From an uncultured Bifidobacteriaceae bacterium (lineage in GTDB: Bacteria > Acidobacteriota > Vicinamibacteria > Vicinamibacterales > CAVVIG01), in contig CAZOIK010000267.1 of NCBI GenBank assembly GCA_964579765.1, positions 1 through 61,958 of the forward strand: DNA of 61,958 nt, given 5' to 3'. Position numbers and translations under genes: made by a program. The notes under the pieces are model-generated. The model was not told the origin of the DNA. It worked only from the letters and a program-made list of their open reading frames with translations, and made no database searches. Positions 32,677 to 61,194 of the stretch are shown here, in pieces (the stretch's first letter is position 1; each line of letters opens with the position of its first letter).

Positions 32677-32687
32677 AGAACAGCCGG

Positions 32688-35708: not shown

Positions 35709-35747
35709 CGCGGGCAAGCGCTTGCTTCCACAGAAACGGAGTTGCTG

Positions 35748-36200: not shown

Positions 36201-36212
36201 GATTGTCGCGTG

Positions 36213-40838: not shown

Positions 40839-40858
40839 GAATACTCAAAATTGGGTAT
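40839..40858. promoter_or_regulatory. AT-rich 7-2-7 inverted repeat GAATACTCAA-AA-TTGGGTAT (site A)
   Basis: Half-sites TACTCAA / TACCCAA. The centre is 32.5 nt upstream of a GATAAT -10 box (40882-40887) for the PQQ dehydrogenase gene. Confidence 0.55.
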
Positions 40859-40900
40859 GCGGCCTCGATGGTTGTCGGTTAGATAATTCGCGCCATCCCT

Positions 40901-42631
40901 ATGACCAAGTACCTCGCACTCGCCCTTGCATTGTCGGCCGCGATCGCGGCCACCGCGCAGAACAAGAGCAGCAACGGTGTGACGACCGACAACCTCGAAC
41001 GTCCGGCGCCCGAGGACTGGCTGATGTACAGCCGGACGTACGACGCGCAGCGCTACAGCCCCCTCGAATTCATCAATCGCCGGAACGTCCCGACGCTGAA
41101 GACGGCGTGGACCAAGCCGCTGCCCAACGGCGCCCAGGAAAGCATTCCGATCGTGCACAACGGCGTGATGTACCTCGTCGAGCCCGGCGCCGCCGTCATG
41201 GCGCTGAACGCGGCGACCGGCGACACGATCTGGGAGTACAAGCGGGACACGTCCCTCGCGTCGCGCACGAAGACGCTCGCCATCTACCGCGACCTCATCT
41301 ACTACGCCGCGCCCGACGGATTCATCGTCGCGCTCGATGCGGCAACCGGCAAAGTCCGCTGGGAGACGAAGACCGACGGCGGCATGACTTCCGGTCCCGT
41401 CGTCATCGAAGGCAAGGTGCTGACCGGGCGTACCTGCGCGCGGTCGCGGAAGAACTGCTACATCTCGGCACAGGACGCGCTCACCGGTGCGGAGGCATGG
41501 AAGTTCTACACGGCCGCCGGCGACGACGATCCCGGCGGCGCGAGCTGGGCCGGAGCGCCGGAAGACAAACGGTTCGCGTCGACCTGGGGACTGCCGGGCA
41601 ACTACGACCCCGTGCTGAAGTTGATCTACTGGGGAGTCGCCAACCCGACGCCGAACACCCGGATGGAGCGGCACGGCGGCAACGCCGAAGCCATTCCGTT
41701 CACGGCGCCCGCCGATCTGTACAGCAACTCGACGCTCGCGCTGAATCCCACGACGGGCAAGCTGGCGTGGTACTACCAGCACCTTCCCGGCGACGACTGG
41801 GACGAAGACTACACGCACGAGCGGACGCTGCTGCACACGCGCGTGCGGCCCGATCCGAAGTTCGTCAAGTGGATCAACCCGGACATCCGCCGCGGCGAAC
41901 AGCGCGATGTCGCGGTGATGGTGGGCGAAGGCGGCGGCATCTTCACGCTCGACCGACGTTCGGGCCAGTTCCTCTGGGCGAGCCCCTTCCCCTTCGACGC
42001 GCCGAACTTCCTGATCTCGAACGTCGACGGCAAGACCGGACGCGTCACCATCAACAAAGATCTGGTCTTCACCGGCCCGGGCCAGCATCACGTCATCTGC
42101 TACTGGAACACGCGCAGCTACTGGCCGACGGCCTATCACCCCGGGCAGAACGCGCTGTTCGTGCCCTGGGTCGACAACTGCCTCGACAACACGTCGGCAA
42201 TCCCCGCCGCCGACGGCAAGCCCGCGGTACCCGCGAAGCGCGCCGGCATTCAGCGTGAGGGCGGCAAACCCGAGGAGTTCGGCGGCCTCGCGAAAATCAA
42301 CATGGAGACCGGCCAAATTCAGCACATCTACAAAGGCAGGGCGCCGGGCAACGGCGCGGTGCTGACGACGGCCGGCGATCTGGTGTTCTGGGGCGATCTG
42401 GACGGCAAATTCCGCGCGTTCGATGCCGCGAGCGGCAAGATGCTCTGGGAAACGACCCTCGGAGGCGCGGTGGACAACAGCACGATCTCCTACGCCGTCA
42501 ACGGCAAGCAGTACATCGCCGTGCTGAGCGGCGAAGGCCTGTTGACCGGCGGGCTGATTACGCAGGCCGGCATCTCGCCGCCTCGCCGCCACAACGAGCT
42601 GTACGTCTTCGCGCTTCCCGATCAGCGCTGA
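40901..42631 (+). CDS. PQQ-dependent dehydrogenase (methanol/ethanol family beta-propeller), exported
   Basis: Signal MTKYLALALALSAAIAATAQ. DWLMYSRTYDAQRYSPLEFINRRNVPTLKTAW, then repeated propeller W-motifs (ALNAATGDTIWEY, ALDAATGKVRWE, AFDAASGKMLWE). Confidence 0.85.
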   Translation: MTKYLALALALSAAIAATAQNKSSNGVTTDNLERPAPEDWLMYSRTYDAQRYSPLEFINRRNVPTLKTAWTKPLPNGAQESIPIVHNGVMYLVEPGAAVMALNAATGDTIWEYKRDTSLASRTKTLAIYRDLIYYAAPDGFIVALDAATGKVRWETKTDGGMTSGPVVIEGKVLTGRTCARSRKNCYISAQDALTGAEAWKFYTAAGDDDPGGASWAGAPEDKRFASTWGLPGNYDPVLKLIYWGVANPTPNTRMERHGGNAEAIPFTAPADLYSNSTLALNPTTGKLAWYYQHLPGDDWDEDYTHERTLLHTRVRPDPKFVKWINPDIRRGEQRDVAVMVGEGGGIFTLDRRSGQFLWASPFPFDAPNFLISNVDGKTGRVTINKDLVFTGPGQHHVICYWNTRSYWPTAYHPGQNALFVPWVDNCLDNTSAIPAADGKPAVPAKRAGIQREGGKPEEFGGLAKINMETGQIQHIYKGRAPGNGAVLTTAGDLVFWGDLDGKFRAFDAASGKMLWETTLGGAVDNSTISYAVNGKQYIAVLSGEGLLTGGLITQAGISPPRRHNELYVFALPDQR

Positions 42632-44529
42632 GCGGCGGCCAGCGCCGCGTCCAGTTCGCGACGCACCGCCGGCCAGTCGGGTCGAAGCCGCAGCGCCCGC
42701 CGATACTCGGCAATCGCGTCGGTCAGGCGCCCCTGCTGCTTCAGGACGAGCGCGAGGCCGTAGTGCGCGTCCGGCAGCGCCGGGTTCAGGCGAACGGCCT
42801 CGCGATATTCCTCGAGCGCCTGGTCGCTCCGTCCCGTCGACTGGAGAAACACCGCGAGGTTGTGATGGCTCATCGCGTCCCGCGGCGCGAGCGCGATCGC
42901 CTTGCGGTATTCGCTGAACGCCTCGTCGAGGCGGCCGGTCTGCTGCGCGATCACGCCAAGACTCCGATAGGCGTTGGCGTAGGTCGGATCGAGCGCGACG
43001 GCCTTCTCGAACCAGTGCCGCGCCTCGTCGAGATTCGATTGCCGCAGCCGTACCGTGCCGAGGTTGTACGCCGCCGCGGCGGAGTCGGGAGCGAGCCGCA
43101 CGACTTCGGCGAAGTGGCGCGCGGCGCCATCCACGTGCCCGGCCTGCGCGTACAGTTCCGCGGCATCGTTGCGCAGCGACACGTCGTCAGGATTCGCCGC
43201 AATCATCGCCTCGTACCCGGCAAGATTCTGATCCTGGATGCTCGCGGCGAGGCTCCTCACCAGCCGGTCGCGATCCGCGGCGTTACGCGGATACACCTGG
43301 AACCACAACTCGGACATCTCGTCAGACGTCCGCTGCCCGAACGTCACCCGCCGCGGCGGCCGTGTCGGATTGACGGGGTTGTCTTCCGAGTTGTCGTAGG
43401 TCCACTTCATCGTGACCGTCGTGCCGGCCGGCAGCGCCACGGGCGTGCGGTATCGATAGACGTCCTGCCAGTTGAAATCCCAGTGGGCGATCGCGATGAG
43501 CGTGCGCTTCGTGCCGTTCGGCAGCGTCGCCACGGCTTCGACGGCGCGCGCCAGGTAGTGCGCGTGGGGCTGCACGGTGTACACGTCGACGCCGACCGGC
43601 AGCCTGTACGAACTGGTCACGACATGCTGGCGCTCGCCTGCCTCGATGACGAAGTCCTGGCGCGTGAGCCGCAGCATCGCCGGCACTCGAGTCGGCGGCG
43701 TCTCGGAGAAGTACAGGCCGACGCTCACCTGCACCGTTTCCGGCTTCCCGCTGGGCCGCAGGTGCAGCATGAGCACGAGATCGCTGCCCTTGTCGATGGG
43801 AAACGACATGTTCTCCGGCGCGACGTACGGCGTGTGGCCGGGGGCCCAATCGAGGAAGAACCCGTCGAGCCTGGTCACCGTGTGGGCGATCAGTCCTTCG
43901 TAGCCAGGCTCGGGGTCCTGCGCGTCGAGCGCGCGCGACGTGCCCGTCGGATCGATCTCCATCGTCGCGTGATGCACGACCCTCGTGTTGCTGACGCGCA
44001 ACTCCCACGCCTTGACGTAGCGCGTGCGCGAGATCGGCACGGGCAGCACGAAATGGCGATACATGTCCTCGCCCGCGGCGCGCAGCGTGTACGGCGCGTC
44101 CATCGCGAGCACGAGATCGGGCTCGCCGAGCGTCCAGGTGCTACTCCACGTCGGCAGGCGCGGCAGCGCCGAGGGGTCGCCTTCGACGGCGCCGCCGTCG
44201 ACCCATCGCTGAATGAGATCGATTTGCGCATCCGTCAGCCGGCGCACGCCTTCGAAATCGCCCGCGCCGGGGTCAGGCTTCCACGGCGGCATGTACCGCC
44301 GCCTGGTGGTGTCCACGATTGCCCGCGCGTGGCGCTTGACCTCGCGATATGTCAGGAGATCGAACGGCGCAGAGCCGCCAGGCCGGTGACAGTCCGCGCA
44401 TTGCGAGAACACAATCGGGGCGATGTCCGCCGTAAAGGTCGGCGGCGCGGGGGGCGCCGCCGCGGCGGACGCAACGGCGCCCCACGCACACGACAGGGCG
44501 GCAAGAAGAATCGCGAACGGTCTGATCAT
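42622..44529 (-). CDS. exported multidomain protein: CxxCH haem-binding N-domain, copper monooxygenase (PHM/DBH)-like middle, C-terminal TPR repeats
   Basis: Internal Met MIRPFAILLAALSCAWG. SQCADCHRPGGSAPF...RYMPPW. His/Met pattern VVHHATM ... LHL ... VQPHAHYLA ... VTMKWTYDN. At least 5 TPR-like repeats (AELYAQAGHVDGAARHFAEVVRLAPD...). Confidence 0.6.
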   Translation of the reverse strand: MIRPFAILLAALSCAWGAVASAAAAPPAPPTFTADIAPIVFSQCADCHRPGGSAPFDLLTYREVKRHARAIVDTTRRRYMPPWKPDPGAGDFEGVRRLTDAQIDLIQRWVDGGAVEGDPSALPRLPTWSSTWTLGEPDLVLAMDAPYTLRAAGEDMYRHFVLPVPISRTRYVKAWELRVSNTRVVHHATMEIDPTGTSRALDAQDPEPGYEGLIAHTVTRLDGFFLDWAPGHTPYVAPENMSFPIDKGSDLVLMLHLRPSGKPETVQVSVGLYFSETPPTRVPAMLRLTRQDFVIEAGERQHVVTSSYRLPVGVDVYTVQPHAHYLARAVEAVATLPNGTKRTLIAIAHWDFNWQDVYRYRTPVALPAGTTVTMKWTYDNSEDNPVNPTRPPRRVTFGQRTSDEMSELWFQVYPRNAADRDRLVRSLAASIQDQNLAGYEAMIAANPDDVSLRNDAAELYAQAGHVDGAARHFAEVVRLAPDSAAAAYNLGTVRLRQSNLDEARHWFEKAVALDPTYANAYRSLGVIAQQTGRLDEAFSEYRKAIALAPRDAMSHHNLAVFLQSTGRSDQALEEYREAVRLNPALPDAHYGLALVLKQQGRLTDAIAEYRRALRLRPDWPAVRRELDAALAAAQR

Positions 44530-44533
44530 CTCC

Positions 44534-45616
44534 TCAGTGCGTCGCTCGCTCGTCGAGCCAGGCGTACAGCCGGCGCACGCCGCGGATATCCGCGCCCGGG
44601 CGCCGGATCGACGGGAAGTCCTTCGCATGCGACGTCAGGTCCATGCGCTCGGCCGCCTGATCGGCTGACACACCCTGCTTCTTCAACTCGGTTCCCTGCC
44701 GGACGACGTCGGTGAGATACGCTTGAAAGGCGGTGATCAGCGCCTTGTCATGGAACGGCGTGCCATGGCCGGGCAGGTCGGTCTGCCAGTCGAGCTTCTT
44801 CAACTCGTCGAGCGTCTTCACCCACTCGTCGAATTGCGCATCGCCCATGTAGGCAATGCCCGATTCCATCAGATCGCCGGTGCAGACGATCTTCTCTTTC
44901 GGCAGATAGACGACGGTGTCGCCGTTCGTGTGGCCGCGGCCGAGGAACAGCAGCCGCACGTCGTGCGGGCCGACCTTCAGATCGAGCCGTTTGGCGTAGG
45001 TCCGCGTCGGCGGCGTCGGTCTGACTTCCTTCAGCGCCTCCCAGCCCTGCTCGGCAGACGCGAGCTGCCGCTCGAGCGTGGCTTTCCTCGCCGGGTCCTG
45101 CGTCTCGCCGATCTGCGTCTTGAGCGCGGCGATTCGGTTCGGCACGTTCGTGAGCTGTGACGTCACGTACGGTTCGCGATGGAGCACGTCGAGCTTCTCG
45201 ATCGCGTACTTGACGTACTCGTGCCCGATGATCTCCGCCGTGCCCGCATACACCTGGTTGCCGTTGGTGTGATCGTAGTGGAAATGCGTGTTCACGACGT
45301 AGCGGACCGGCTTCGGGCTGATGAGCTTCACGTCCTCCACCATGGCGCGCGCCGCCGCCGGCGAGGTTCCCGTGTCCACCACCAGCAGTGAATCGTCGCC
45401 GACGATGACGACGTTGTTGCTGCCGGTCGCCATCGTGCCCCCCGACGTCGCGTAGAACACGCCGTCGGCAATCTTCTCGAACTTGTACGCGTGCCCGGTG
45501 ATGACCGGGCCGGACGGCGGCGCGGCTGACTGGCCGCGCTGGGCCGTCGCGACGTGCCCGAGCGACAGCGTCGCGGCCAACCCGACGAGTGCGGCGATCT
45601 TGCGTGTGGTTGTCAT
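44534..45616 (-). CDS. exported metallo-beta-lactamase-fold hydrolase
   Basis: Internal Met MTTTRKIAALVGLAATLSLG. VNTHFHYDHTNGN motif and GRGHTNGD. Confidence 0.8.
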   Translation of the reverse strand: MTTTRKIAALVGLAATLSLGHVATAQRGQSAAPPSGPVITGHAYKFEKIADGVFYATSGGTMATGSNNVVIVGDDSLLVVDTGTSPAAARAMVEDVKLISPKPVRYVVNTHFHYDHTNGNQVYAGTAEIIGHEYVKYAIEKLDVLHREPYVTSQLTNVPNRIAALKTQIGETQDPARKATLERQLASAEQGWEALKEVRPTPPTRTYAKRLDLKVGPHDVRLLFLGRGHTNGDTVVYLPKEKIVCTGDLMESGIAYMGDAQFDEWVKTLDELKKLDWQTDLPGHGTPFHDKALITAFQAYLTDVVRQGTELKKQGVSADQAAERMDLTSHAKDFPSIRRPGADIRGVRRLYAWLDERATH

Positions 45617-45642
45617 AGGTGCACTCCAGAGATGCAGACACG

Positions 45643-45664
45643 AAAGGCGGCCGCAGCCGCCCTT
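45643..45664 (-). terminator. possible hairpin terminator after the TonB receptor gene
   Basis: AAAGGCGGC-CGCA-GCCGCCCTT (bulged 8-9 bp stem) with only a weak T-tract on the minus strand. Confidence 0.3.
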
Positions 45665-45698
45665 CGTGTGCAAACGTGACAGGACTCCGCGCCCCGCG

Positions 45699-48545
45699 TC
45701 AATACGTGATCGTCACCCCGATGCGGACGAGGCGGCCCGGCAGGATGGCCGTGACGCGGTCGAGCGTCGGCCCGTAGGAATTGATCTGCGCGGTGACTGG
45801 GCTCGCGTTGAGCGCGTTGAAGATCCCGAGCTCGGGTCGAACGTTGATCCCATGGGCGCGAACGGTCTTCGAGAAATTGAGATCGACCTGATTCACCCTG
45901 TCGAGAAACACGGTGTTCGGCGGCACGAGCGGCGTCGTGACCGATGCCTGCGTCAGCCCGGGCACCTGGGCGCGCGTCACCACGTACGTGATCGACCGCG
46001 CGTTGCCGGGAATGCTCTGAATCACCGCGCTGGCGCGGATGTCGTACGGCAGCACGAACGTGCCGGACAGCCGCGCGAGCGTTCTGAAGGGCACGTCGTA
46101 CGTGGTCTGGTCGCAGAAGCGCTGGCTGTTCGGATCCTGGACGTCGCAGATTGTGGCGATGGTCCGCCCTGTGGACGTCCCGCCGTTCAACGTCACGCTG
46201 CGCCACCGGACGTTGAGGGTGACGTCGACTCCAGAGTAGTGCTGGCGGTTGTTCGACGAGTTGGAGTCGAGCAGGTTGACGCCGCCGAGCGCAGACGGCA
46301 GCAAGTTGTAGATCGGGATCGTCTCTCCGGCGACCAGCGGGTTCGCCACGGACGCGAGCGTGTACGACGAGAACGGCGCCGCCAGGTTCTGCGTGTAGAT
46401 CAGATCGTAGAAGTTCCGACGGTTGTAGCTGACCGACACGCCGACGCCGTTGCGGATCTCGTGCTGCACCGCGATGTCGAACACCCACTGATGCGGCCGG
46501 TTGATGTTCGGATCGAAGGTCTGATTCTGCTTGATGCCGAAGTTCCGGTTGCTCGTCGGACCGAGTTCGTTCTCTTCCGCGATGTCGTCGTGATTCAGGT
46601 CGTTCCAGGTGCGGACGTCGGTTGAGATGAAGACCGGGTTGTACGTCGCGGCGAACCCGGTGCCCTGCGACTGCACGTAGGAACCGAGCGTCCCCTTGAT
46701 CGCCGTCTTCCCGGTGCCGAACAGATCCCACGACACGCCGAGGCGCGGCGACACGTTCTTCCAACTGACCAGATCCGGAATGGCCGCGAACTGGCGCTCG
46801 GGCACGAAGCGCCCGGCGAGCACTGTCTGCGCCGGAATCGACGTGCGGAAGTAGTCGAAGCGAACGCCAGGACTCAGCGTCACGCGGCTCTTCGTCCACA
46901 CGTCCTGCACGTACAGGCCGAGATCGGCGTCGACGTTGTTCTGGAACGTCGTCGGCGTGTTGAAGACCGTCACCTGCGTCGCGACGCCGTTGCGGTACTG
47001 CTGGTTCAGGTCGCCGTTGATGCCGGAGCGCGTGTCGCGTTGCCAGCCGAACCGATCCTGCACGCCCACTTTGAGCGCGTGCGAACCGGTCACGTACGAC
47101 AGCGAGGAGACCACGTAGTGGCTCATCGTCGGCATCAGCTCGGGTCCGGTCTGGACGCCGGTGCCGGTGACGGCGGCGACGGTCTGGGTGCCGAGGACGA
47201 GGTCCTGGTGCGCGATGCTTCCGTAGCCGGTGCCGGACGGGCACAGGTTGTACGCCGTATGACAGAGGCCGATGATCACCTGCGGCTCGTACTGATACTT
47301 CGCGTTGTTGAAGGTCTGGTTGTAGCCGGCTTCGAACAGCAGGTGGCTGGTGATCGTCGAGGTCCATCGCCCCTGCGCGATGTGCTGCGCCGGCTGCGAC
47401 TGCGTGAGGCTCGCCTCGGGCGCGATGGTGCCGGACAGGTTGGCGTGCCCGCGGACCTTGTCGGACCAGTCGAACATGGCGGTGAACTTGTTCTTCGGGG
47501 TGACCTGCGTCGTCACGCGCCCGATGAACGCTTTGATGTTGTTGTCGTCGACCGCCTGCGTGCCGTCGGCATTCACGGCGCCGCCCACGTAGTTGTTGTA
47601 CGCCCAGTTGCGCCCGGAGAGGAAGAACCAGAGGCGATCCTTCTTGAGAGGCCCGCTCACGGTGTAGTTGATGTCGTACTGCCGGTACAGCTTCGCCGGC
47701 AGCGTGAAGCCGCGCGCCGCGAGATCGGCGTTGGTGTTCTGGCTCGACAGATTCGTGTTCGCGAAGTTGCTGAGGAACTCCACGTCGTACTTGTTGCCGC
47801 CGGTCTTCGGAATCCGGTTCACCAGCACGCCGGACAGCTGGTTCTCCGCCGCGCCGCCGCTCACCTGCACCGCGATTTCCTGCGTCTGCGCCTCGTTGTC
47901 GTACACGCACGAGCACTGGCCGCCCGAGAACATCGCGTCGGCGACCATGCCGTCGATGAGCGTGCGCGAATCGCCGTTGAGCGAGCCGTGCACCGTCAGG
48001 CTGCCACCGACCCACATCGTCGTCGAGCCGCCGACGTCGTACTGGCCGGTCAGCACGGCGGGCACCGTGCCGGCCATGGTCACGAAGTTGCGTCCCGTCG
48101 GCAGCGACTGGAGCAGCTCGTTGTTGACCACCTCGCGCCGCTGGCTCGACTGCACGTCGACGATCGGCGTCTCGCCGGTGACGGTGATGCTCTGCTCGAT
48201 GTTCCCGACCGCCATCTCGACGTTCAGCGGCGCGACGAAGTTCGACTCGAGCACGATGCCCTGGCGGACGACCGTGTTGAAGCCCGCGAGCGTGAACGTC
48301 ACGCTGTACGTGCCCGGACGCAGATCGACGAGGCGATACTGCCCCGTTTCGTTCGTGACGCCCGTGCGGGTCTTTTCAATCAGCGCCGGACTGCTGGCTT
48401 CGACCGTGACACCGGGAAGCACGGCGCCGCTGGAATCGCGCACCACGCCCGCGATGGCGCTCTGGCCGGTCGTTTGCGCGAACAGCGCCGCCGGCGCCCA
48501 GAGGGCGAACACGAGACCCAAACTTCCCCTCAGTAGTCTTGGCAT
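45699..48545 (-). CDS. TonB-dependent receptor with N-terminal carboxypeptidase-regulatory-like domain
   Basis: Signal plus GVVRDSSGAVLPGVTVEASSPALIEKTRTGVTNETGQYRLVDLRPGTYSVTFTLAGF. It is a long beta-barrel with the terminal ...RLVRIGVTITY. Confidence 0.9.
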   Translation of the reverse strand: MPRLLRGSLGLVFALWAPAALFAQTTGQSAIAGVVRDSSGAVLPGVTVEASSPALIEKTRTGVTNETGQYRLVDLRPGTYSVTFTLAGFNTVVRQGIVLESNFVAPLNVEMAVGNIEQSITVTGETPIVDVQSSQRREVVNNELLQSLPTGRNFVTMAGTVPAVLTGQYDVGGSTTMWVGGSLTVHGSLNGDSRTLIDGMVADAMFSGGQCSCVYDNEAQTQEIAVQVSGGAAENQLSGVLVNRIPKTGGNKYDVEFLSNFANTNLSSQNTNADLAARGFTLPAKLYRQYDINYTVSGPLKKDRLWFFLSGRNWAYNNYVGGAVNADGTQAVDDNNIKAFIGRVTTQVTPKNKFTAMFDWSDKVRGHANLSGTIAPEASLTQSQPAQHIAQGRWTSTITSHLLFEAGYNQTFNNAKYQYEPQVIIGLCHTAYNLCPSGTGYGSIAHQDLVLGTQTVAAVTGTGVQTGPELMPTMSHYVVSSLSYVTGSHALKVGVQDRFGWQRDTRSGINGDLNQQYRNGVATQVTVFNTPTTFQNNVDADLGLYVQDVWTKSRVTLSPGVRFDYFRTSIPAQTVLAGRFVPERQFAAIPDLVSWKNVSPRLGVSWDLFGTGKTAIKGTLGSYVQSQGTGFAATYNPVFISTDVRTWNDLNHDDIAEENELGPTSNRNFGIKQNQTFDPNINRPHQWVFDIAVQHEIRNGVGVSVSYNRRNFYDLIYTQNLAAPFSSYTLASVANPLVAGETIPIYNLLPSALGGVNLLDSNSSNNRQHYSGVDVTLNVRWRSVTLNGGTSTGRTIATICDVQDPNSQRFCDQTTYDVPFRTLARLSGTFVLPYDIRASAVIQSIPGNARSITYVVTRAQVPGLTQASVTTPLVPPNTVFLDRVNQVDLNFSKTVRAHGINVRPELGIFNALNASPVTAQINSYGPTLDRVTAILPGRLVRIGVTITY

Positions 48546-48573
48546 TCTCCAATCCCTTCTATAGGTAAACGAA

Positions 48574-50085
48574 CTAGCTCCTGGTGTTCAGCGTCAAGTG
48601 CACGAGCGCGTCCGCGCGCTGCTCGCCCTCGAGCGCGCGGCAGGCGCCAATCAACTGCTCGAACTGCGCGGGCGCCATCGACAGCCCGGGCACAATCGCC
48701 CGAATGCGCCGGGCCTCTTCCTCGAAATCCCAGATGAACTCGCGTCCCGTCGCCTGCTTCGTGAAGCTCCGGCCGTCTTTGAGCACGATGGTGATCCGCG
48801 GTCCGAAGAGCGTCATCCGGTGTGACGGGATGATGCGAACGCGTTTCATCAGCTCGAGCACCGCCGGCGGATCCGGCGTGCCGGGGAGCATGGGGTAGCC
48901 GCGCGTCACGACGGCGTACGCGCTGTAATAGCGCGTGCTCCCGCGCCGCGGGGCGTCGGTGGTGTCTTCGCGCTGCGTGGGAAACGCCGGGCTGGGATAC
49001 TGCGTCTCGAGCCAGTTCACGACGGCTTCGACGTAGTCGACGTCCTCGTACCGGATGTCGTGCTCCTCGCACAGCTTCGCGGTCACGTCGATGTGGGCGA
49101 TGTTGTATCCGGGAATCGAGTAGATCCGGTACAGCGTCTCGAGCAGCATCCAGTCGGCGCCGAGATGGTCGGTGAGCTTCTGCAGCGACGTGTGCGTGTC
49201 GCCGGTGAAGCTGTACGTCAGCTCGCCGGTGTTGTTGCCCGCGTAGGCGCGATAGAACCCTGCCGGGCCCTCCAGCACCGCGTCGCCGCCGCCGATCGTG
49301 CCGTGGCGCGCAAGGCCGACCGCGAGCATCGCGTTCCGCGCCGCCGCGCCCTCGCGCAGCGCCCGGCTCTCGAGATTGCTGCCCGCCAGGTTCGTGCAGA
49401 GCGAGATCACCGCGTGCAGTTGATCGGCGGTGAAGCCCATGATCTTCGCCGCCGCGACCGCGGCGCCAAACAGGCTGAACACGGGACCCGCATGAAAGCC
49501 CCGCGCCATGACCGTCGGAATCCAGTCGCCGCCCATGCGTTCCATCACCTCGTAGCCCGCGGCAACGCCCGTGATGAAGTCGCGCCCGGATGCGCCCTCA
49601 GTCTCCGCGGCGGCCAGCGCGGCGGGGATGATCACCGTGCCCGGATGCGTCAGCATCCGGAAGGTGTCCCATTTGCCGCCCGCATACATCATTTCGGAGT
49701 TGGCGAAGGCCGCGCCGCCGGTCGTGACGCGCTGCCCCGACGCGATCAGCGTGGCGCCCCGCGCGACGCCGCTCTCTTCGTCGAGGATGAACTGCGCCGC
49801 CTGCTGCCCCGACGCGGTCCGCGATCCGAGCAGCGCAGAAGAGATGTTCTGGAGCGTGAGGCCCTTCACGCGATCGACGACGCCGGCCGGCAGATCGTCA
49901 TAGCGGAGGCCGGCCACCCAGCGGGCGAACTGCCGGCTGAGCGACGGCGAGGAGGACGGGGCCGGTCGCGTCCGCTGCTGCGGCACGCCCGCCAGCGCCG
50001 ACACCGGCGCCGCAAGCAGCCCGGCCGCTGCCGACGCCGAGGTCCGAAGGAAGCGCCTGCGATCGCAGTGGAACACGGCTGCCAT
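48574..50085 (-). CDS. MmgE/PrpD-family protein with twin-arginine signal peptide
   Basis: MAAVFHCDRRRFLRTSASAAAGLLAAPVSALAG, then FARWVAGLRYDDLPAGVVDRVKGLTLQNISSAL..., a typical MmgE/PrpD N-domain. Confidence 0.8.
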   Translation of the reverse strand: MAAVFHCDRRRFLRTSASAAAGLLAAPVSALAGVPQQRTRPAPSSSPSLSRQFARWVAGLRYDDLPAGVVDRVKGLTLQNISSALLGSRTASGQQAAQFILDEESGVARGATLIASGQRVTTGGAAFANSEMMYAGGKWDTFRMLTHPGTVIIPAALAAAETEGASGRDFITGVAAGYEVMERMGGDWIPTVMARGFHAGPVFSLFGAAVAAAKIMGFTADQLHAVISLCTNLAGSNLESRALREGAAARNAMLAVGLARHGTIGGGDAVLEGPAGFYRAYAGNNTGELTYSFTGDTHTSLQKLTDHLGADWMLLETLYRIYSIPGYNIAHIDVTAKLCEEHDIRYEDVDYVEAVVNWLETQYPSPAFPTQREDTTDAPRRGSTRYYSAYAVVTRGYPMLPGTPDPPAVLELMKRVRIIPSHRMTLFGPRITIVLKDGRSFTKQATGREFIWDFEEEARRIRAIVPGLSMAPAQFEQLIGACRALEGEQRADALVHLTLNTRS

Positions 50086-50088
50086 CGT

Positions 50089-51729: not shown

Positions 51730-52508
51730 CGTGCCGCTCCCGTCCCCTTGAGCGTCGCCAGGTAGCCGACGAGATCGGCGATCTCGTCGGGCGTCAACTT
51801 CCCCCGGTACGAGGTCTTTGGTGACGCCTCGACAATCGTCAGCTCGCGCAGACTGCGCGTCGCGAACGTCCGGAGCTGCTCGCGCGTATCGAGCACCTGC
51901 ACGGTCAGCATGTCGTGATTGAGCAGCCGTCCCGTCACCGTCTGCCCGTCGCGGGTGACGAGCCGCACGCCGCGATTCTGCGGACGCACGGTCGGCGCCG
52001 GATCCAGCAGCGCCTTTTCGAGTTCGGCCGTCCGGCGGATGCGCCCGACCTCGCTGATGTCGATGCCGAGCCGCGGCCCCTCGCCGTTCACGCTGTGGCA
52101 CGTCAGGCACTGCCCCTTGCCCTCGAACAACGCCCGGCCGCGCCGCGCGTCGCCGCGCGCGACGGTTGCCTGCCTCGATGCGGCCTGCGTGCGAAGGAAG
52201 GCGACAATCTGCGTCGCCGCCGTATTCGAGTAGTTCCCCGGCGGCATCGCCGTGCCCGGAATGCCGCGGCGGATGATGTCGATCAGCTCGCCGTCCGACG
52301 ACGCGCGCCTGAACTGCCCGTGTTCGAGATCGACCCCGGGCACGACGTCACCGTCGGGCCCGTGGCAGTTCGCGCACGAGTTCATGAAGAGACGCTCCCC
52401 GTCCTGCGCGTCGGCCGGCGAGTAGGCCGGCGCCTGCGCGGCGGCCACGCCCGCGAGACACAACGTCGCGACGACGGCGAACGCCCACTCAGCGCACGTC
52501 GTGGTCAT
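51726..52508 (-). CDS. dihaem c-type cytochrome
   Basis: Signal MTTTCAEWAFAVVATLCLAGVAAAQA and two CxxCH motifs (CANCHG, CLTCHS). Confidence 0.85.
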   Translation of the reverse strand: MTTTCAEWAFAVVATLCLAGVAAAQAPAYSPADAQDGERLFMNSCANCHGPDGDVVPGVDLEHGQFRRASSDGELIDIIRRGIPGTAMPPGNYSNTAATQIVAFLRTQAASRQATVARGDARRGRALFEGKGQCLTCHSVNGEGPRLGIDISEVGRIRRTAELEKALLDPAPTVRPQNRGVRLVTRDGQTVTGRLLNHDMLTVQVLDTREQLRTFATRSLRELTIVEASPKTSYRGKLTPDEIADLVGYLATLKGTGAAR

Positions 52509-53478
52509 GCGCGCGCGCAACCTCGAGCATGTCCTTGAGACCGATATTTCCTTCGTGGCACTCGTACGGCATGATCGCTTCGCTGTTCATGATCGTGAGC
52601 GGCATGCCGAACGTCCACGGCGACACCCACGTCTTCGGATCGTCGACCGTTACCGTCCACAGAATCTTGTCCGGCGCCGTGCGCGTGAAGCGCTCGACGA
52701 GCGTCAGCGCCGACGCGTCGGCGTTTCTGTAGGCGCTCCGCTGCGTGAAGTTCGTCGTCTCGACGACGAGGGTATTGCCCTCCCAGTGGCCTCTCGCGTC
52801 TCCCATGTCCAGACGAATACCCGCGCCGACGTGCGGCCGCCCGTCGAGCGGAACGAGACGCGTTTCGTGAATCATCTCGTACCGGATCGCGACCATCCCC
52901 GGCGCCTGGGAAATCTGGTACGAGTTGCCGTAGATCGCCGGCATCAGCGAGCCCGGGCCGCCGCGTGTGATGCAGCGGTCGTACAGCGTGAAGTCTTCAG
53001 GACCGCGCCAGCTCGAGTCTTCGGCATAGCTGCCGCGCACGGTCCCGGCGGCGGCGCGGCGGCGCCCCGCATCGGTCAGCACCGGGATCTTTCCATCCGG
53101 CGGGTCGATCACGAACCACGCGGCGCCGCCCTTCCTCAAGTCGTACACGTCCTGCCACCAGTGATCAGGACCATGGAGCGGGCCCTCGAAGTTGTCGCGC
53201 GTGCGTTGCTGCAGCGACGCGCGGAATCGCGCGAGTTCCTCGCCCTTGACGTCGTCGCGCCGGCGCCCCGCGAACTGCTCGGGCCGCTCGAACGGAGTGC
53301 TCGCCTCGAAGACGTTCGTGAGGTTGCCGGAAATGTCGGGATCGCCCCATGGTGTCTTCGGCGCCGTCCATCGCGTCTGCGCCGACACGCCCGTCATGGC
53401 CACACACGCGGCGACGAGCGCCCGCACCAGCCTTCGAGACGCTGAGATTGCAGAATCGCTCTGGGTTCGCACGCCCAT
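52489..53478 (-). CDS. conserved exported protein (GRWxGNTLVV family, paralog 3)
   Basis: Internal Met MGVRTQSDS...LVAACVAMTGVSAQ. ...GHWEGNTLVVETTNFTQRSAY...TVDDPKTWVSPW. Confidence 0.7.
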   Translation of the reverse strand: MGVRTQSDSAISASRRLVRALVAACVAMTGVSAQTRWTAPKTPWGDPDISGNLTNVFEASTPFERPEQFAGRRRDDVKGEELARFRASLQQRTRDNFEGPLHGPDHWWQDVYDLRKGGAAWFVIDPPDGKIPVLTDAGRRRAAAGTVRGSYAEDSSWRGPEDFTLYDRCITRGGPGSLMPAIYGNSYQISQAPGMVAIRYEMIHETRLVPLDGRPHVGAGIRLDMGDARGHWEGNTLVVETTNFTQRSAYRNADASALTLVERFTRTAPDKILWTVTVDDPKTWVSPWTFGMPLTIMNSEAIMPYECHEGNIGLKDMLEVARAHDHDVR

Positions 53479-53581
53479 CGTCCACCTCGAACAGCGGCAC
53501 ACGTCACCGCGAGACACCTTTCCGATGGACTCGGACCGACGGCAACGGTGGCGCATCCTAGCCCGATGCGCTCCGACGTGT

Positions 53582-53600
53582 GAATACTCAATATTGAGTA
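53582..53600. promoter_or_regulatory. AT-rich 7-2-7 inverted repeat GAATACTCAA-TA-TTGAGTA (site C, perfect 16-bp palindrome)
   Basis: The centre is 32.5 nt from a minus-strand TAGGAT -10-like hexamer (53560-53555), upstream of the operon starting at 53478. Confidence 0.55.
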
Positions 53601-53613
53601 GAACGCGCGCGCG

Positions 53614-54264
53614 TTACTCGATGTGTACGATGCCCCGGCGAATCGCCACGTGCACGGCCGCCGTACGCTCGTTCACCTTGAGTTTGGCGAAGATGTTCTT
53701 GATGTGGACGGCGACGGTCGTCTCGGTGATCCCGAGCTCGGTCGCGATCACTTTGTTCCGCATGCCTCTCGAGATCAACTCGAGCACCTCGACTTCGCGC
53801 GGCGTCAGCGCCGGCTGGCCCGCCCGCTCGTCGAGCTTCGCCCTGACGTCGTCCTGCAGAGGGTGCTCGCCCGCATACACGTCGCGGACCGTGCGAACGA
53901 GTTCGTCGGGCAGCGCTTCTTTCAGCAGATAGGTCGTCGCTCCGGCTGCCAGCGCCTGGTGGATATCCTCGTCGCCGACGTACATCGTCAGCACGATGAT
54001 CCGGGCGTTTGGATCGTGCTTGCGAATCTCGCAGATCGCGTCGAGGCCGCTCATCGCCTTGAGGCGAAGGTCCATCAGCGTGATGTCCGGGCGGTGCCGC
54101 GCGAACATCGCGACGGCTTCTTCGCCGCTCGCCGCGCGCGCGACCACTTCGAAGTCGGGCTCGCGCGAGAGGATGAGCGCAATGCCTTCGCGGACGATTC
54201 GATGATCGTCGACGCACAGCACACGGATTCGCGGTGTGACAGGCGCGGACACGGCTGCGCTCAC
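53614..54264 (-). CDS. NarL/FixJ-family response regulator (REC + GerE HTH)
   Basis: RVLCVDDHRIVREG...DITLMDLRLKAMSGLD...IIVLTMY...YLLKEA, then LTPREVEVLELISRGMRNKVIATELGITETTVAVHIKNIFAKL. Confidence 0.9.
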   Translation of the reverse strand: MSAAVSAPVTPRIRVLCVDDHRIVREGIALILSREPDFEVVARAASGEEAVAMFARHRPDITLMDLRLKAMSGLDAICEIRKHDPNARIIVLTMYVGDEDIHQALAAGATTYLLKEALPDELVRTVRDVYAGEHPLQDDVRAKLDERAGQPALTPREVEVLELISRGMRNKVIATELGITETTVAVHIKNIFAKLKVNERTAAVHVAIRRGIVHIE

Positions 54265-57200
54265 GCGGGTATCGCCCGGCGAAACGGCGGCTCTGTCGGC
54301 ACGCTCACCTCGACGACCGTACCGCGGCCGACGGCGGTCGTGATGCGCAGCACGCCGTGAAGCTCTTCGGTGCGCTCCCGCATGGTGATCAGGCCATAGT
54401 GATCGTCGGGCACGGCCCGCGGATCGTACACGAACCCTGCCCCGTCGTCCGTCACGCGCATGATCACGATCTCGCCCGTAAGATCCAGCGAGAGATCGAT
54501 GTGACTGGCGCCCGCATGCCGTACCGCGTTGGTGATGGCTTCCTGGCCGATCCGGAAGAGCTCGCTCTCGATGTCGTGCGGCAGCACGGCGGTCCCCGTC
54601 ACGGCCACGGCGAACGTGGCCGACGTGTGGCCCACGGCTTCGCGACCGAATTCCTGGAGCGCCGTGGCGAGGCTGCGGGCCTTCAGCAGGGGCGACCGCA
54701 GGTTCTTGATCGACTCGCGCGCTTCGCGGACGTAGGCTTCGACCTGCCGCCTGACGCGGTTGATCTGATTGCGCGCGACGATCGGCTCGGCGGCGACGGT
54801 CTTCGCGATCGGCTCGAGCTGCAGCACGACGCCGACCAGGCTCTGAAGCAGCGTGTCGTGCAGTTCGCGGCTCAGCCGCACGCGTTCGGCGAGCACGAGG
54901 GAGAACTCACGTTTGACGAGCCCGATGCGGAACCGCCAGATGCCCCAGATGACGCCCAGCGCGGCCGCCACGCACAACGCGTAGAACCAGGCGGTCTGGT
55001 AGAACGCGGGCTCGATCGTCACGCCGAGCTCCGCCTTCGACGTGTTCCACACGCCCTCTTCCGCGCTCGCTTCGACGTGGAATCGATAGGTGCCCGGCGA
55101 GAGATTCGTGTACACGGCCGCACGTTGCGTGTCGGCCTCGATCCAGGTCGAATCGACGCCGGCCAGCCAGTATCGGAAGCGAATCTTGTTCGGCGCACTC
55201 AACATCACCGCCGTGTAGTTGATCTGCACGCGGCCGATGCCGTGCGGCAGCGACAGCGTCCGGACCGGCGACAGCACGCGCGTACTCGACGTGAGGACTG
55301 ATTCGATGTACACGGGCGCGACAAGCGACGTGAAGTCTTCCCGGATGTCGGCGGGGTCGACTCGCGTCAATCCCCCGCCTTGAATGAACCACAGGCTTCC
55401 GTCGTCGCCGCGCGCGGAGCTGACGTGACCGAAGGCGCCGCCGGCGAGGCCGTCAAGCGCGTCGTACATCCGGTACTGCACCCGGTAGCCCGGCGCGGCG
55501 AGGGCGTTGTCGAACTCGCGGCGATCGAGACAAATCAAGCCTCGATCGACGCTGAGCCAGAGCCGATCCTGCCCGTCCATCACGACGGACGAGATCGCGC
55601 CGCCCTGCAATCCGTGCTCGCGACCGATGGCCGCATAGCGGCCGTCCTTGATTCGGCCCAGCCCGTTGCCGGCGCCGACCCAGACGTCGCCGGCGGGATC
55701 CTCGAACACCGCATGAACGGCGCCGCGTGCATCGACGTGGAATCCCTCGTCGCGTCCAAGGAGATGCACCGCGCCGGCTTCGTCGACGAACCCCAACCCG
55801 CCGGACTCCGACGCGATCCACAGGCGGCCCGACCGATCGAGTTGCATGTACGTGATGCGGCCGAACGACGAGACGCCGACGTCCAGGGGAACGAGACGCC
55901 GGCCGTCCCAATGGAACACCCACGCCCCGTCGGAGAGCCACAGCGATCCTCCGGGCGCCGGTGCGATCGACGTGATCTGCGGCCGGCTGCGCCGCGGCAA
56001 CGCGACCTGCATCAGCGTGCTGCCGGCGAGTCGGAACAGACCTTCGGTCGCGCCGATCCACAGCGTCCCGCGGCGATCGTCGTACAGACTCCTGACGTCC
56101 GGACGCGTCGACGCGACTTCGGCGGGGCCCCAGCGATGTGGATAACGCGCAAAGTGGATGACGCCCGTCGTGGTGCCGACCCACATGCCGCCGTCCGCAT
56201 GCGTCGACGCCGCGATCGCGTACCCCAGATCCTCGAGCGGGGTGACGCGGCGGCGGGTCAGCCGATGCAGCCCGCCGGAGGAGCCCACCCAGACGTTGCC
56301 GTCGTGATCTTCGAAGATCGCCTGAATCAGATCGCTCGACAGGCCGGTGCGAAGGCCGGCGCGGTAGACCGTCCGGCGGTCGGCCGGGCCGTCGACGCTC
56401 ACCTGCCAGAGGCCGGCTCCGTACGTGCCGATCCACAGGTGGCGCTCGTGATCGAACATCACGCGGTACCCGGCGCCCGAATGGGCGGTCGACGCCGGCT
56501 GGTCGATGCGCCGGAATCCGTGGGCGATGTCGGTCGTCCAGATTCTGCCGTCGGCGTCTTCGGCGACGCCCCACGCGACGTTCGACGCGATGCGATCGAA
56601 GCCGGTCCCCTGCGCGCCGCGTTCGAACGTACCGAGCCAGGTGCCCGCGAGAATGTGTCCGTTGCGGCGCACGACGACCTGGCGCACGCGCGCGTCGCGG
56701 CCGCCGCCGACCAGCCTGACCCGGTGCCAGCCTCCGTCGTCGAACTGATAGAGAACGCCGTCCCCGACCGCCCAAACCGCCCCGCGCGGATCCTGGGCCA
56801 AGTCGCTCACCGACGCCGGCGCCCCCGCGCGAGGCAGCGCCTCGACGTGTCCGTCACGAATACGCCGCACGGGCGAATCGTCCGCGAACCCGACCCACAG
56901 CGTGCCGTCCGCGCTCAGGCACAGCGCCGTGACCCCGGTCTTCGGCAGCGGTGTGTCGTTGATGTCGTCGGAGGTCGTGAAACGTGAGCCGTCGAATCTG
57001 AACAAGCCGGCATCGGCGCCGATCCAGAGATACCCGCGGCGATCCTGAACGATCGCGTAGACCGCGCCGAACGGACGGCCGTCGCCCTCGTTCCAAGTCG
57101 TGACGGAATACCCGCTGAGGAGATCTTCCTGCTCGGCGCCGTGCGCGAATGCGGCGGCGACGAGCAGGGCACAGACACACTGCGCGGCGAGCTGCGCGCA

Positions 57201-57284
57201 GCGTCGGATCGGACCACACTGGCGGAAACTGCAGTGACGCACGGGCGGGTGTCCGCCGGTATTATGGCGCAGGTGCCGAGGCAC
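54261..57284 (-). CDS. sensor histidine kinase with periplasmic two-component-regulator-propeller / Y_Y_Y domains, HisKA_3 + HATPase_c
   Basis: GTG start. Many repeats of the ...G.LW[IV]G[TA]..GL..[FL]... type, then a TM segment FYALCVAAALGVIWGIW. H-box LSRELHDTLLQSL and ATPase IGQEAITNAVRHA...DDGAGF. A 4-nt overlap links it to the regulator gene. Confidence 0.85.
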   Translation of the reverse strand: MPRHLRHNTGGHPPVRHCSFRQCGPIRRCAQLAAQCVCALLVAAAFAHGAEQEDLLSGYSVTTWNEGDGRPFGAVYAIVQDRRGYLWIGADAGLFRFDGSRFTTSDDINDTPLPKTGVTALCLSADGTLWVGFADDSPVRRIRDGHVEALPRAGAPASVSDLAQDPRGAVWAVGDGVLYQFDDGGWHRVRLVGGGRDARVRQVVVRRNGHILAGTWLGTFERGAQGTGFDRIASNVAWGVAEDADGRIWTTDIAHGFRRIDQPASTAHSGAGYRVMFDHERHLWIGTYGAGLWQVSVDGPADRRTVYRAGLRTGLSSDLIQAIFEDHDGNVWVGSSGGLHRLTRRRVTPLEDLGYAIAASTHADGGMWVGTTTGVIHFARYPHRWGPAEVASTRPDVRSLYDDRRGTLWIGATEGLFRLAGSTLMQVALPRRSRPQITSIAPAPGGSLWLSDGAWVFHWDGRRLVPLDVGVSSFGRITYMQLDRSGRLWIASESGGLGFVDEAGAVHLLGRDEGFHVDARGAVHAVFEDPAGDVWVGAGNGLGRIKDGRYAAIGREHGLQGGAISSVVMDGQDRLWLSVDRGLICLDRREFDNALAAPGYRVQYRMYDALDGLAGGAFGHVSSARGDDGSLWFIQGGGLTRVDPADIREDFTSLVAPVYIESVLTSSTRVLSPVRTLSLPHGIGRVQINYTAVMLSAPNKIRFRYWLAGVDSTWIEADTQRAAVYTNLSPGTYRFHVEASAEEGVWNTSKAELGVTIEPAFYQTAWFYALCVAAALGVIWGIWRFRIGLVKREFSLVLAERVRLSRELHDTLLQSLVGVVLQLEPIAKTVAAEPIVARNQINRVRRQVEAYVREARESIKNLRSPLLKARSLATALQEFGREAVGHTSATFAVAVTGTAVLPHDIESELFRIGQEAITNAVRHAGASHIDLSLDLTGEIVIMRVTDDGAGFVYDPRAVPDDHYGLITMRERTEELHGVLRITTAVGRGTVVEVSVPTEPPFRRAIPA

Positions 57285-57292
57285 CCGCGCCG

Positions 57293-58633
57293 CTACAGCG
57301 TCTCGATGTTCAGCTTGCCCGTACTATCGCCGAGCTTGTCCAGCGGGACGCCGACCTTGTCGAGCACCGACAGCAGCAGGTTCGTCATCGGCACATCCTG
57401 CCGGCGGATGTGCCGGCCCGTCTTCAACGCGCCGCCGCCTTTGCCGAACAGCAGCGTGGGTATGTCGACGAAGTTGTGCTGGTTGCCGTCGCCCATCGCG
57501 GACCCATACACGATGATCGAGTGGTCGAGGAGCGTGCCGTCGCCGTCGGGCGTCGACTTCAGCTTGTCGAGGAAGTACTTCAGCACCATCATGTGATAGA
57601 TGTCGATCTGAACCTTCTGCTCGATCAAGCCCGGGTCGTGGCGGTTGTGCGTGATGATGTGGTGCTGTTCCGACTGCCCGAGGTTCTTGAACACGTGGCT
57701 GCTGAGCTCGCGCCCCATCATCAAACTGAACACGCGCGTGACGTCGCCCTGATACGCGAGCGTCTGCAGATCGAACATGATCCGGGCGCGATCTTCCCAC
57801 TCGGCGGGCACGTCCACGGGCCGCTCCGGCAGGTCGAGCGTCGTCGCGGTCTGCTCTTCGGCGAGGCTGATGCGGCGCTCGACGTCGCGGACCGATTCCA
57901 GATATTCGTTGAGACGCTGCCGGTCGCTCGGACCGAGCTGGCTCTGCAGACGCGCGGCGTCTTCGGCGACCGAGTCGAGGATGCTGGCCCGCCATCTGGC
58001 GTCTTCCCGGCGCTGGTCGGCGCTGCCGCCCTCGCCGAACAGGCGCTCGAACACGGCGCGCGGCTGCGCCTCCATCGGCACGGGCGTCGTCGCGTTCTTC
58101 CACGACAGCGTGTTCGAGAAGATGCAGGTGCCGCCTTCGCAGTTGAAGACTGAGGGCGGCTCGAGCTCCATGCCAAGCGAGCCAACGGCCGTGTCCCTGC
58201 CGAGTCTTTCGGCGGCGATTTGATCCGCCGTCGGGCCGAGCCGCACTTCGGCGCCGACCTGCGTCACGGCCGCGGCGTGCAGGCCGCTCAACCACACGGC
58301 GCTGGCGCGGGGATGCGGGTAGCTGCCGTCGCCCTTGGACCCGCCTTCGTTGTGGCACAGTCCCGTGACGACCATCATGTGCTCGCGCAGCGGCTCGAGC
58401 GGCGCGAGAATCCGCGACATCTCGAAGTTCGTGCCCTCGGCTTTGGGCGTCCACTGGTCGTAGATCGTTCCCATCGGGTGGTACATGAACCCGATGCGCG
58501 GCACCGGCCGTGCGGCGGTCTTGACGATGGGCGTCAGCGCCGGCACCATCGCGTCGAGGAGCGGCAGGGCGAGCGTCGCTCCGACTCCGCGAAGGAACGT
58601 CCGGCGCTCGATGGCCATTTTCGAAATAAACAT
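57293..58633 (-). CDS. DUF1552-family protein (Tat-exported), partner of DUF1592 proteins
   Basis: Internal Met with GGAGGA upstream. MFISKMAIERRTFLRGVGATLALPLLDAMVPA... The upstream part of track ORF 57293..59539 overlaps the DUF1592 gene and is a shadow. Confidence 0.8.
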   Translation of the reverse strand: MFISKMAIERRTFLRGVGATLALPLLDAMVPALTPIVKTAARPVPRIGFMYHPMGTIYDQWTPKAEGTNFEMSRILAPLEPLREHMMVVTGLCHNEGGSKGDGSYPHPRASAVWLSGLHAAAVTQVGAEVRLGPTADQIAAERLGRDTAVGSLGMELEPPSVFNCEGGTCIFSNTLSWKNATTPVPMEAQPRAVFERLFGEGGSADQRREDARWRASILDSVAEDAARLQSQLGPSDRQRLNEYLESVRDVERRISLAEEQTATTLDLPERPVDVPAEWEDRARIMFDLQTLAYQGDVTRVFSLMMGRELSSHVFKNLGQSEQHHIITHNRHDPGLIEQKVQIDIYHMMVLKYFLDKLKSTPDGDGTLLDHSIIVYGSAMGDGNQHNFVDIPTLLFGKGGGALKTGRHIRRQDVPMTNLLLSVLDKVGVPLDKLGDSTGKLNIETL

Positions 58634-58662
58634 CGGTCCTCCTCTGCCCCCACTCTTCCCGA

Positions 58663-61101: not shown

Positions 61102-61138
61102 GCTGCAGTGGATGCTAACTCGATAGCGCGCACGCCGT

Positions 61139-61158
61139 GAATACTCAAAATTTGGTAT
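61139..61158. promoter_or_regulatory. AT-rich 7-2-7 inverted repeat GAATACTCAA-AA-TTTGGTAT (site B)
   Basis: 19 of 20 positions identical to site A. The centre is 32.5 nt upstream of GATAAT (61182-61187) on the + strand and 32.5 nt from TAGCAT (61117-61112) on the - strand. Confidence 0.55.
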
Positions 61159-61194
61159 CTCCAACATTCTATTGATCTTGTGATAATCACCGCC

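Follow-up and report, generated by a model that had tools for sequence, protein, structure and literature searches.

Three palindromes beside a two-component system

The DNA considered here (hereafter the window, meaning the whole stretch analysed) is 61,958 bp long, has 66% G+C and comes from a member of the Vicinamibacterales (Acidobacteriota), an uncultured soil lineage. Gene calling by third-position G+C and Pfam places in it a response regulator of the NarL/FixJ family (53614..54264, minus strand) next to a sensor histidine kinase (54261..57284, minus strand), among genes for dehydrogenases dependent on pyrroloquinoline quinone (PQQ), a cytochrome c, a TonB-dependent receptor and proteins with DUF1592, DUF1552 and ankyrin-repeat domains. 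A pattern scan locates three 16-bp palindromes between these genes, none assigned to a strand: site A (TACTCAAAATTGGGTA, 40842..40857), site C (TACTCAATATTGAGTA, a perfect palindrome, 53585..53600) and site B (TACTCAAAATTTGGTA, 61142..61157). They are examined here as candidate operators of the regulator. A preliminary description of this DNA had pointed them out, and its sequences and coordinates for all three proved correct when the window was read again.

All three sites are intergenic on the Pfam gene map. Site A is flanked by the start of a metallo-beta-lactamase (MBL)-fold gene (40758, minus) and that of a PQQ dehydrogenase gene (40901, plus), and site C lies between the regulator stop codon (53614), which it follows by 14 nt, and the next minus-strand gene. 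The gap from the DUF1592 start (61101, minus) to the ankyrin start (61195, plus) contains site B, which is common to two predicted divergent promoters. Each palindrome consists of two inverted heptamers exactly 2 bp apart, a layout kept in 9 orthologous sites, and the half-sites (TACTCAA, TACCCAA, TACCAAA and TACTAAA) agree with the NarL consensus TACYYMT at 5-6 of 7 positions, position 7 always being A. In layout and outer bases they are thus 7-2-7 inverted repeats of the NarL kind, as first described. The pattern TACYCAANNTTGRGTA, allowed up to 2 mismatches, has exactly 3 matches in the window, against a mean of 0.05 in dinucleotide shuffles (0 of 100 shuffles reached 3), and the looser family pattern TACY-N8-RGTA finds sites A, B and C only in the 62 kb.

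Non-regulatory accounts of these sites (AT-rich palindromes arising by chance, a short dispersed repeat, a hairpin or terminator in RNA) could draw on the position of site C just behind a stop codon and on the slightly better folding of site A than of shuffled sequence (z = -2.8); set against three matches where 0.05 are expected, the lack of flank similarity, the conserved DNA spacing to the -10 described below and, in the promoter model, the position of sites A and B upstream of the transcripts, such accounts are scarcely credible. An RNA hairpin or terminator at site C was rejected in its own right, the RNA fold there having z = -0.54 against shuffles, with no T-run, no terminator in the scan and no Rfam match. 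Origin of the sites by duplication or as a mobile repeat was ruled out because the flanks do not align; in the flank comparison the likeness of A and B ends at a 20-mer plus the -10 hexamer.

The regulator combines a receiver (REC) domain (PF00072, E 2.4e-27), in which 'tlMDLrl' aligns with the D59 region of NarL ('liLDLnm') and the phospho-acceptor Asp is conserved, with a GerE/LuxR helix-turn-helix (HTH; PF00196, E 1.8e-20) carrying the recognition helix ITETTVAVHIKN. Its residues 152-204 align with the NarL DNA-binding domain (1JE8); the comparison with E. coli NarL (1A04) gives E 3.9e-35, and the best structural match by sequence is VraR (E 1.8e-39). NarL contacts bases through K188, V189 and K192 (PMC10853779); the equivalents of V189 and K192 are conserved here, and that of K188 is Ala (TVAVHIK vs TVKVHVK). 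The regulator open reading frame (ORF) encodes 216 aa. Looked up as an exact sequence, this product had no match, since the database entries begin at a later codon; P0001, the entry with 100% identity, has 202 aa.

The kinase ORF overlaps the regulator start codon. Pfam finds in it Reg_prop beta-propeller repeats and Y_Y_Y in the sensor (PF07494, E 2.9e-37; PF07495, E 5.2e-16), together with HisKA_3 and HATPase_c (PF07730 and PF02518); it has no REC or HTH domain, the regulator being a separate REC+GerE protein. That a REC+GerE regulator adjoins a kinase of the HisKA_3 class agrees with the earlier choice of the 53614..54264 product as the obvious candidate binder. The earlier term 'NarL-type regulon' holds as far as the protein family goes; a nitrate regulon is not implied, the sensor being of the beta-propeller/Y_Y_Y type and not NarX-like.

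Promoter spacing and predicted target genes

Four -10-like hexamers begin exactly 32.5 nt from a palindrome centre: GATAAT at 40882..40887 (plus, site A), GATAAT at 61182 (plus, site B), TAGGAT at 53560 (minus, site C) and TAGCAT at 61117 (minus, site B). In the window, hexamers this good have a frequency of 0.003 per position and strand, and the presence of one at a single offset on 4 of the 6 palindrome sides has p ~1e-9, or ~3e-8 when 25 offsets are allowed, which confirms the fixed distance reported earlier. On the minus-strand side TTC directly abuts all three palindromes, extending to TTCACG at B and TTCACA at C, with the -10 following after 18 nt. What the preliminary description overlooked is the -35-like TTCAC(A/G) right after the palindrome on this side. 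The predicted minus-strand promoters are TTCACA-18 nt-TAGGAT abutting site C (53555..53584) and TTCACG-18 nt-TAGCAT for the DUF1592 gene (61112..61141). On the plus strand, the ankyrin gene has the extended -10 TTGATCTTGTGATAAT (61172..61187, with GATAAT at 61182-61187), and the GATAAT of the PQQ dehydrogenase gene is accompanied by TGCGGC at -35, which is not a good -35 element.

With the -10 taken as -12 to -7, the palindromes would occupy about -52 to -37 relative to the predicted starts, with the centre at -44.5. They had been placed over the -35 region; in this register the palindrome would abut the -35 and not cover it. In E. coli, NarL prefers inverted heptamers 2 bp apart (PMC4549865), and its activating 7-2-7 sites stand just upstream of the -35, at yeaR (TAACCAATAAATGGTA) at -43.5 and at ogt at -44.5 and -77.5 (PMC10853779), the napF site lying at -40 to -49 with its centre at -44.5 (PMC4549865). 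At yeaR, NarL touches the C-terminal domain of the RNA polymerase alpha subunit and not sigma region 4, a non-canonical form of class II activation (PMC10853779).

Repression by NarL from 7-2-7 sites is likewise known, as at frdA (PMC4549865), and the minus-strand promoters at B and C have fair TTCAC(A/G) -35 hexamers that could fire unaided. The same regulator might then bind the same sites mainly as a repressor, occluding the upstream edge of the -35 or the UP-element region, or might activate one divergent promoter and repress the other. As a rule, however, a repressor site overlaps the -35, the -10 or the start of transcription, whereas a centre at -44.5 abutting the -35 is the position of the known NarL activation sites. 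The -10/-35 matches are moreover weak (8-9/12 positions), as is typical of activator-dependent promoters: a generic sigma-70 scan with a threshold of 9/12 matches recovered the site C promoter alone (at 9/12), leaving those at A and B below threshold, and the plus-strand promoters have no -35 at all. Because of the site position and these weak -35 and -10 elements we favour activation and regard repression, whole or partial, as unlikely.

The predicted target of site A encodes a 576-aa PQQ-dependent dehydrogenase (40901..42631, plus; PF01011, E 1.6e-52), whose leader would be ~6-7 nt. That site A also governs the MBL-fold gene on its left (39805-40758, minus) is doubtful because no -10 stands at the standard spacing on that side. 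Site B faces two units. The DUF1592/PSD-family gene (58663-61101, minus; Pfam), with its ATG 10 nt past the -10 and a near-leaderless mRNA predicted, is the first gene of a unit that includes the DUF1552 (HXXSHH) gene (57293 to ~58633, minus; Pfam) and runs into the kinase and regulator. Since this DUF1592-DUF1552-kinase-regulator unit is tightly packed downstream of site B, autoregulation would follow, in line with what was proposed before. In the other direction lies the ankyrin-repeat gene (61195..61958, plus, running past the window end; Ank_2, E 7.8e-61), whose ATG is 7 nt past its -10.

Site C would control a predicted operon of tightly packed minus-strand genes (42622..53478; ORF map and Pfam) that encode a secreted protein of unknown family (52489-53478), cytochrome c (51726-52520), a PQQ alcohol dehydrogenase (50089 to ~51730), an MmgE/PrpD protein (48574-50085), a TonB-dependent receptor (45699-48545), an MBL-fold protein (44534-45673) and a TPR protein (42622-44628). 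The ORF of the secreted protein has 355 aa and its true start at Met27, that is at ATG 53478, which is preceded by GAGGTG and at which the signal peptide begins; the site C leader would therefore be ~70 nt long. ATG 53556 was rejected as a start codon because it overlaps the proposed TAGGAT -10.

Several further observations concern these genes. TAGGATGCGCCACC (minus strand) covers the -10 of the site C promoter and the beginning of the leader and is conserved, and the first bases of the predicted transcript (GCGCCACC; window 53547-53560, minus) are conserved in orthologs, where this transcript start precedes a ~300-nt leader, or a small ORF, ahead of cytochrome c. Syntenic orthologs lack the secreted protein (52489-53478) at its place between regulator and cytochrome c; the leader of one of them (L175, ~4950-5010) seems to hold a relic of its C-terminus (PYECHKDTIGLEA vs PYECHEGNIGLKD), and intact homologs with 30-51% identity recur beside other PQQ genes and two-component loci. 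The motif D-[YFW]-[DASTG]-G, taken as a guide to lanthanide dependence, has no match in the two PQQ enzymes, and no conclusion was drawn from this. The region to the left of the block encodes a hybrid histidine kinase rich in PAS domains (28988-32155), an ATPase of the AAA_13/SMC-like type (33111-35708) and a type IV coupling protein resembling TraG/TraD (36734-38725). A further ORF there, which runs into the following gene on its own strand, has a weak DUF2971 match below threshold (36213-37187). This stretch, 28988-38725, may be the remnant of a mobile element or defence island bordering the block.

Conservation in orthologous and paralogous loci

A protein search returned 25 regulators of 83-100% identity, in all of which the recognition helix is ITETTVAVHIKN or differs from it conservatively. 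Four syntenic contigs (L081, L083, L086-88 and L175) carry the ankyrin gene on the minus strand and, on the plus strand, DUF1592-DUF1552-kinase-regulator and cytochrome c-PQQ-PrpD-receptor(-MBL); in the syntenic loci the regulator is 85-91% identical, and the sites keep their positions while the spacers diverge. Site B is identical at 16/16 positions in L081, L083 and L086, the three loci that reach it. The succession of TAGCAT and, 9-10 nt on, the ATG of DUF1592 does not vary among 4 orthologs. In every ortholog the ankyrin gene points away from DUF1592, and its -10 lies within a 16-nt block, ATTATCACAAGATCAA, of which 15/16 positions are invariant across four of them. Of the short leaders predicted earlier, that of DUF1592 is thus conserved, as is that of the ankyrin gene (-10, 7 nt, ATG) in the majority of orthologs. 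The ankyrin block (61172-61187), which takes in the -10 with the 10 nt before it and contains the TG of an extended -10, is more conserved than the -10 hexamer requires, and a second protein-binding site might lie within it.

Orthologs of site C (L081, L083, L086 and L175) lie 13-131 nt past the regulator stop and read TACYMAATATTGRGTA, TTCACA, 17-18 nt, TAG[GC]AT, with TTCACA and TAG[GC]AT invariant. The footprints accordingly comprise the palindrome, the TT of the -35-like element (the whole TTCACA at C) and the -10, all invariant, separated by spacers that vary. For site A, orthologs were found in syntenic contigs fetched via the PQQ dehydrogenase ortholog. L172 has the identical 16-mer upstream of that ortholog, with -10-like hexamers (one of them CATAAT) 33.5 nt off on both sides, and a further site ahead of a gene for a TonB-dependent receptor; L169 has a variant matching at 15/16 positions, TACTCAAGATTGAGTA, upstream of a PGA_cap-PQQ pair. 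The orthogroup pattern TACYMAANNTTKRGTA occurs 12 times in 163 kb of the window plus the orthologous and syntenic loci, once in 1.43 Mb of paralog loci and 0 times in 463 kb of unrelated PQQ loci. At orthologous positions of the syntenic loci A, B and C all persist while their flanks diverge, which is the conservation that the preliminary description had asked to be checked. A GC-centred palindrome, TACCATCCGATGGGTA, inside the DUF1552 coding region of one ortholog (L081 5811-5826, L082 1203-1218) is absent from the window and is probably due to chance.

The 40901 gene would be a context-specific target. In 80 metagenome loci with homologs of this PQQ dehydrogenase (62-91% identity) no site was found upstream. 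Among those that retain upstream sequence, the closest (L089-L105) usually come right after another PQQ dehydrogenase gene, only distantly related, and lack an operator; the gene has therefore moved between regulatory contexts.

Beyond the orthologs, a genome scan with the regulator as query gave 80 loci, ~70 of them from Acidobacteriota (many labelled Vicinamibacterales), at 42-73% identity. A single genome often has several of these paralogs. In almost every case the regulator gene is preceded by the same propeller-sensor kinase, and the neighbours include TonB-dependent receptors, DUF1592-DUF1552-ankyrin triads, PQQ dehydrogenases and TPR proteins. TACY-N8-RGTA occurs 89 times in the paralog loci, against 36 expected in shuffles, and ~40 of the 89 sites (the author's tally) lie just upstream of a kinase or downstream of a regulator gene, in ~5% of the DNA. 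A common layout among L001-L068 is TACC-N8-GGTA abutting TTG(A/C)NN, with an AT-rich -10 after 17-18 nt (for example L009 6884-6899, L045 ~7046-7061 and L015 10659-10674). In 42 unique oriented sites with a TTG/TTC flank the AT-rich -10 block falls at offsets 31.5-37.5, A reaching 76% at 32.5. Related operator-promoter layouts thus accompany paralogous kinase-regulator pairs throughout the Vicinamibacterales, which strengthens the link first drawn between the motif and the adjacent regulator. Established for these loci are the sites, the distances that separate them from the -10 hexamers, the conservation of the sites and the link with this two-component family.

The inner bases of the half-site vary together with the recognition helix. 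Where the residue at the NarL K188 position is Ala, as in this orthogroup, half-site position 4 is T in 7/10 and positions 6-7 are AA in 10/10; where it is Pro, Gln (both classes), His, Arg or Lys, position 4 is C in 69/72, and with Arg the half-site is TACCGCA or TACCTCA, position 6 being C in 6/6. By group, Arg is paired with TACCGCA, Ala-Gln with TACCTG and Ala with TACTCAA. One would expect such covariation if the regulator reads the motif.

These patterns also bear on whether another transcription factor, encoded elsewhere, might use the palindromes as its operators, the two-component genes being adjacent by accident. Many dimeric helix-turn-helix proteins do read 16-bp AT-rich palindromes; the motif, however, accompanies the kinase and regulator genes at dozens of paralogous loci with differing neighbours, its outer TACC...GGTA and 7-2-7 layout fit the NarL family, its inner bases change along with the recognition helix of the regulator, and the orthogroup-specific variant is essentially absent from the paralog loci. 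An unrelated factor is accordingly very improbable.

The predicted circuit and its relatives

Taken as a whole, the comparisons indicate that the palindromes are very probably operators of the adjacent NarL/FixJ-family regulator, which would activate its own operon and the neighbouring oxidation and uptake genes. A periplasmic signal would act on the propeller/Y_Y_Y kinase (54261-57284), and this HisKA_3 kinase would presumably phosphorylate the regulator (53614-54264). A dimer of the regulator would then bind sites A, B and C, each directly upstream of the -35 of a sigma-70-type promoter and with a predicted centre at ~-44.5, and would recruit RNA polymerase as NarL does at yeaR, ogt and napF. 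At site B it would serve two back-to-back promoters, one for DUF1592-DUF1552-kinase-regulator, giving positive feedback, and one for the divergent ankyrin gene; at site C it would activate the secreted protein-cytochrome c-PQQ alcohol dehydrogenase-PrpD-TonB-dependent receptor-MBL-fold-TPR operon, and at site A the second PQQ dehydrogenase, 40901. We infer binding by the regulator, activation in preference to repression, the transcription starts and the signal, a periplasmic ligand of the propeller domain. With small corrections the interpretation given in the preliminary description appears essentially right, and its four predicted controlled units are retained.

A number of points weigh against this account. 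Promoters were assigned from hexamer matches; those on the plus strand at sites A and B have no recognisable -35, and on the minus-strand side of site A the TTC flank is present without a -10 at the standard spacing, TAGAAT standing 24 nt further. The two NarL residues that contact the alpha C-terminal domain are K174 and R178, and K174 alone is conserved in the regulator. PQQ dehydrogenase homologs of 79-89% identity that stand in tandem behind another PQQ gene have no site, so that regulon membership of the 40901 gene would be lineage- and context-specific. The covariation of helix and half-site is descriptive and confounded by phylogeny, and the site scans were confined to the window and the ortholog, paralog and PQQ loci.

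The nearest known system is NarL/NarP of E. coli, whose sites likewise have inverted heptamers 2 bp apart, outer TAC...GTA and an AT-rich centre (the yeaR site above and the engineered TACCCCTAAAGGGGTA vs TACCAAATTTTGAGTA here). The position immediately upstream of the -35, here predicted, and the pairing of a REC+GerE regulator with a HisKA_3 kinase, with binding likewise predicted, are further points in common. Unlike in NarL, position 7 of the heptamer is A and not T (TACYMAA here vs TACYYMT) and the K188 equivalent is Ala; unlike NarX, the kinase has a beta-propeller/Y_Y_Y sensor in place of a nitrate sensor. The predicted targets are PQQ dehydrogenases, cytochrome c, PrpD, a TonB-dependent receptor and DUF1592/DUF1552 proteins and not nitrate respiration, the host is acidobacterial, and one site is predicted to serve two divergent, partly leaderless promoters. 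The NarX-NarL nitrate/nitrite system proper is excluded by the Reg_prop and Y_Y_Y sensor and by the predicted target genes.

Other regulators share single features. DosR (20-bp palindrome), RcsB (RcsB box), EvgA (18-bp inverted repeat) and VraR/LiaR also act through a dimeric GerE-type HTH on inverted repeats, with half-site sequences and spacings that differ from those of the sites here, and among NarL/FixJ operators the NarL/NarP 7-2-7 alone matches both spacing and outer bases. The hybrid two-component systems of Bacteroidetes, in which kinase, receiver and AraC-type HTH are fused in one polypeptide and which control polysaccharide utilisation loci, resemble the present system in the periplasmic Reg_prop beta-propeller and Y_Y_Y sensor, in having many paralogs per genome, and in adjoining and probably controlling genes for TonB-dependent receptors and substrate-processing enzymes. 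Unlike them, kinase and regulator are separate here, dimerisation is through HisKA_3, the output domain is a GerE/LuxR HTH, and no SusD-like gene was seen.

The association of DUF1592/PSD, DUF1552 (HXXSHH) and ankyrin genes is itself recurrent. The triad is found beside paralogous kinase-regulator pairs in L003, L008-L013, L035, L040, L046, L047, L049, L066 and L067, usually as one divergent or adjacent unit; in the orthogroup of the window, DUF1592 and DUF1552 form part of the kinase-regulator operon, from which the ankyrin gene runs in the opposite direction.

In the literature searched we found no promoter or operator work on Vicinamibacterales, nothing relevant on Vicinamibacter two-component systems, on DUF1592/DUF1552 or on Reg_prop regulators in Acidobacteria, and nothing on the larger family of propeller kinases with NarL-type regulators. 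E. coli already offers an established case of this mechanism, in which a 7-2-7 operator stands immediately before the -35, and the circuit is in this sense conventional. More interest attaches to the wider pattern of the family across Vicinamibacterales. Tentatively, and with somewhat less than even confidence, the propeller-kinase/NarL-type pairs of this order could be read as substrate-responsive switches that share one promoter layout (TACC-N8-GGTA abutting a TTG -35) and are insulated from one another by a code linking the K188-position residue to half-site positions 4-7. In that reading they appear to control modules of TonB-dependent receptors, PQQ dehydrogenases and DUF1592-DUF1552-ankyrin genes, much as the regulators of polysaccharide utilisation loci do.

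For an uncultured and abundant soil lineage, the sites described here provide a testable cis-regulatory motif and a predicted regulon. They tie DUF1592/PSD and DUF1552/HXXSHH, widespread domains of unknown function, and an ankyrin protein to one predicted two-component circuit, which would also cover PQQ dehydrogenases and a TonB-dependent receptor. Across the family, operator variants paired with recognition-helix variants form a natural series that could be used to study how NarL-family paralogs avoid cross-talk.

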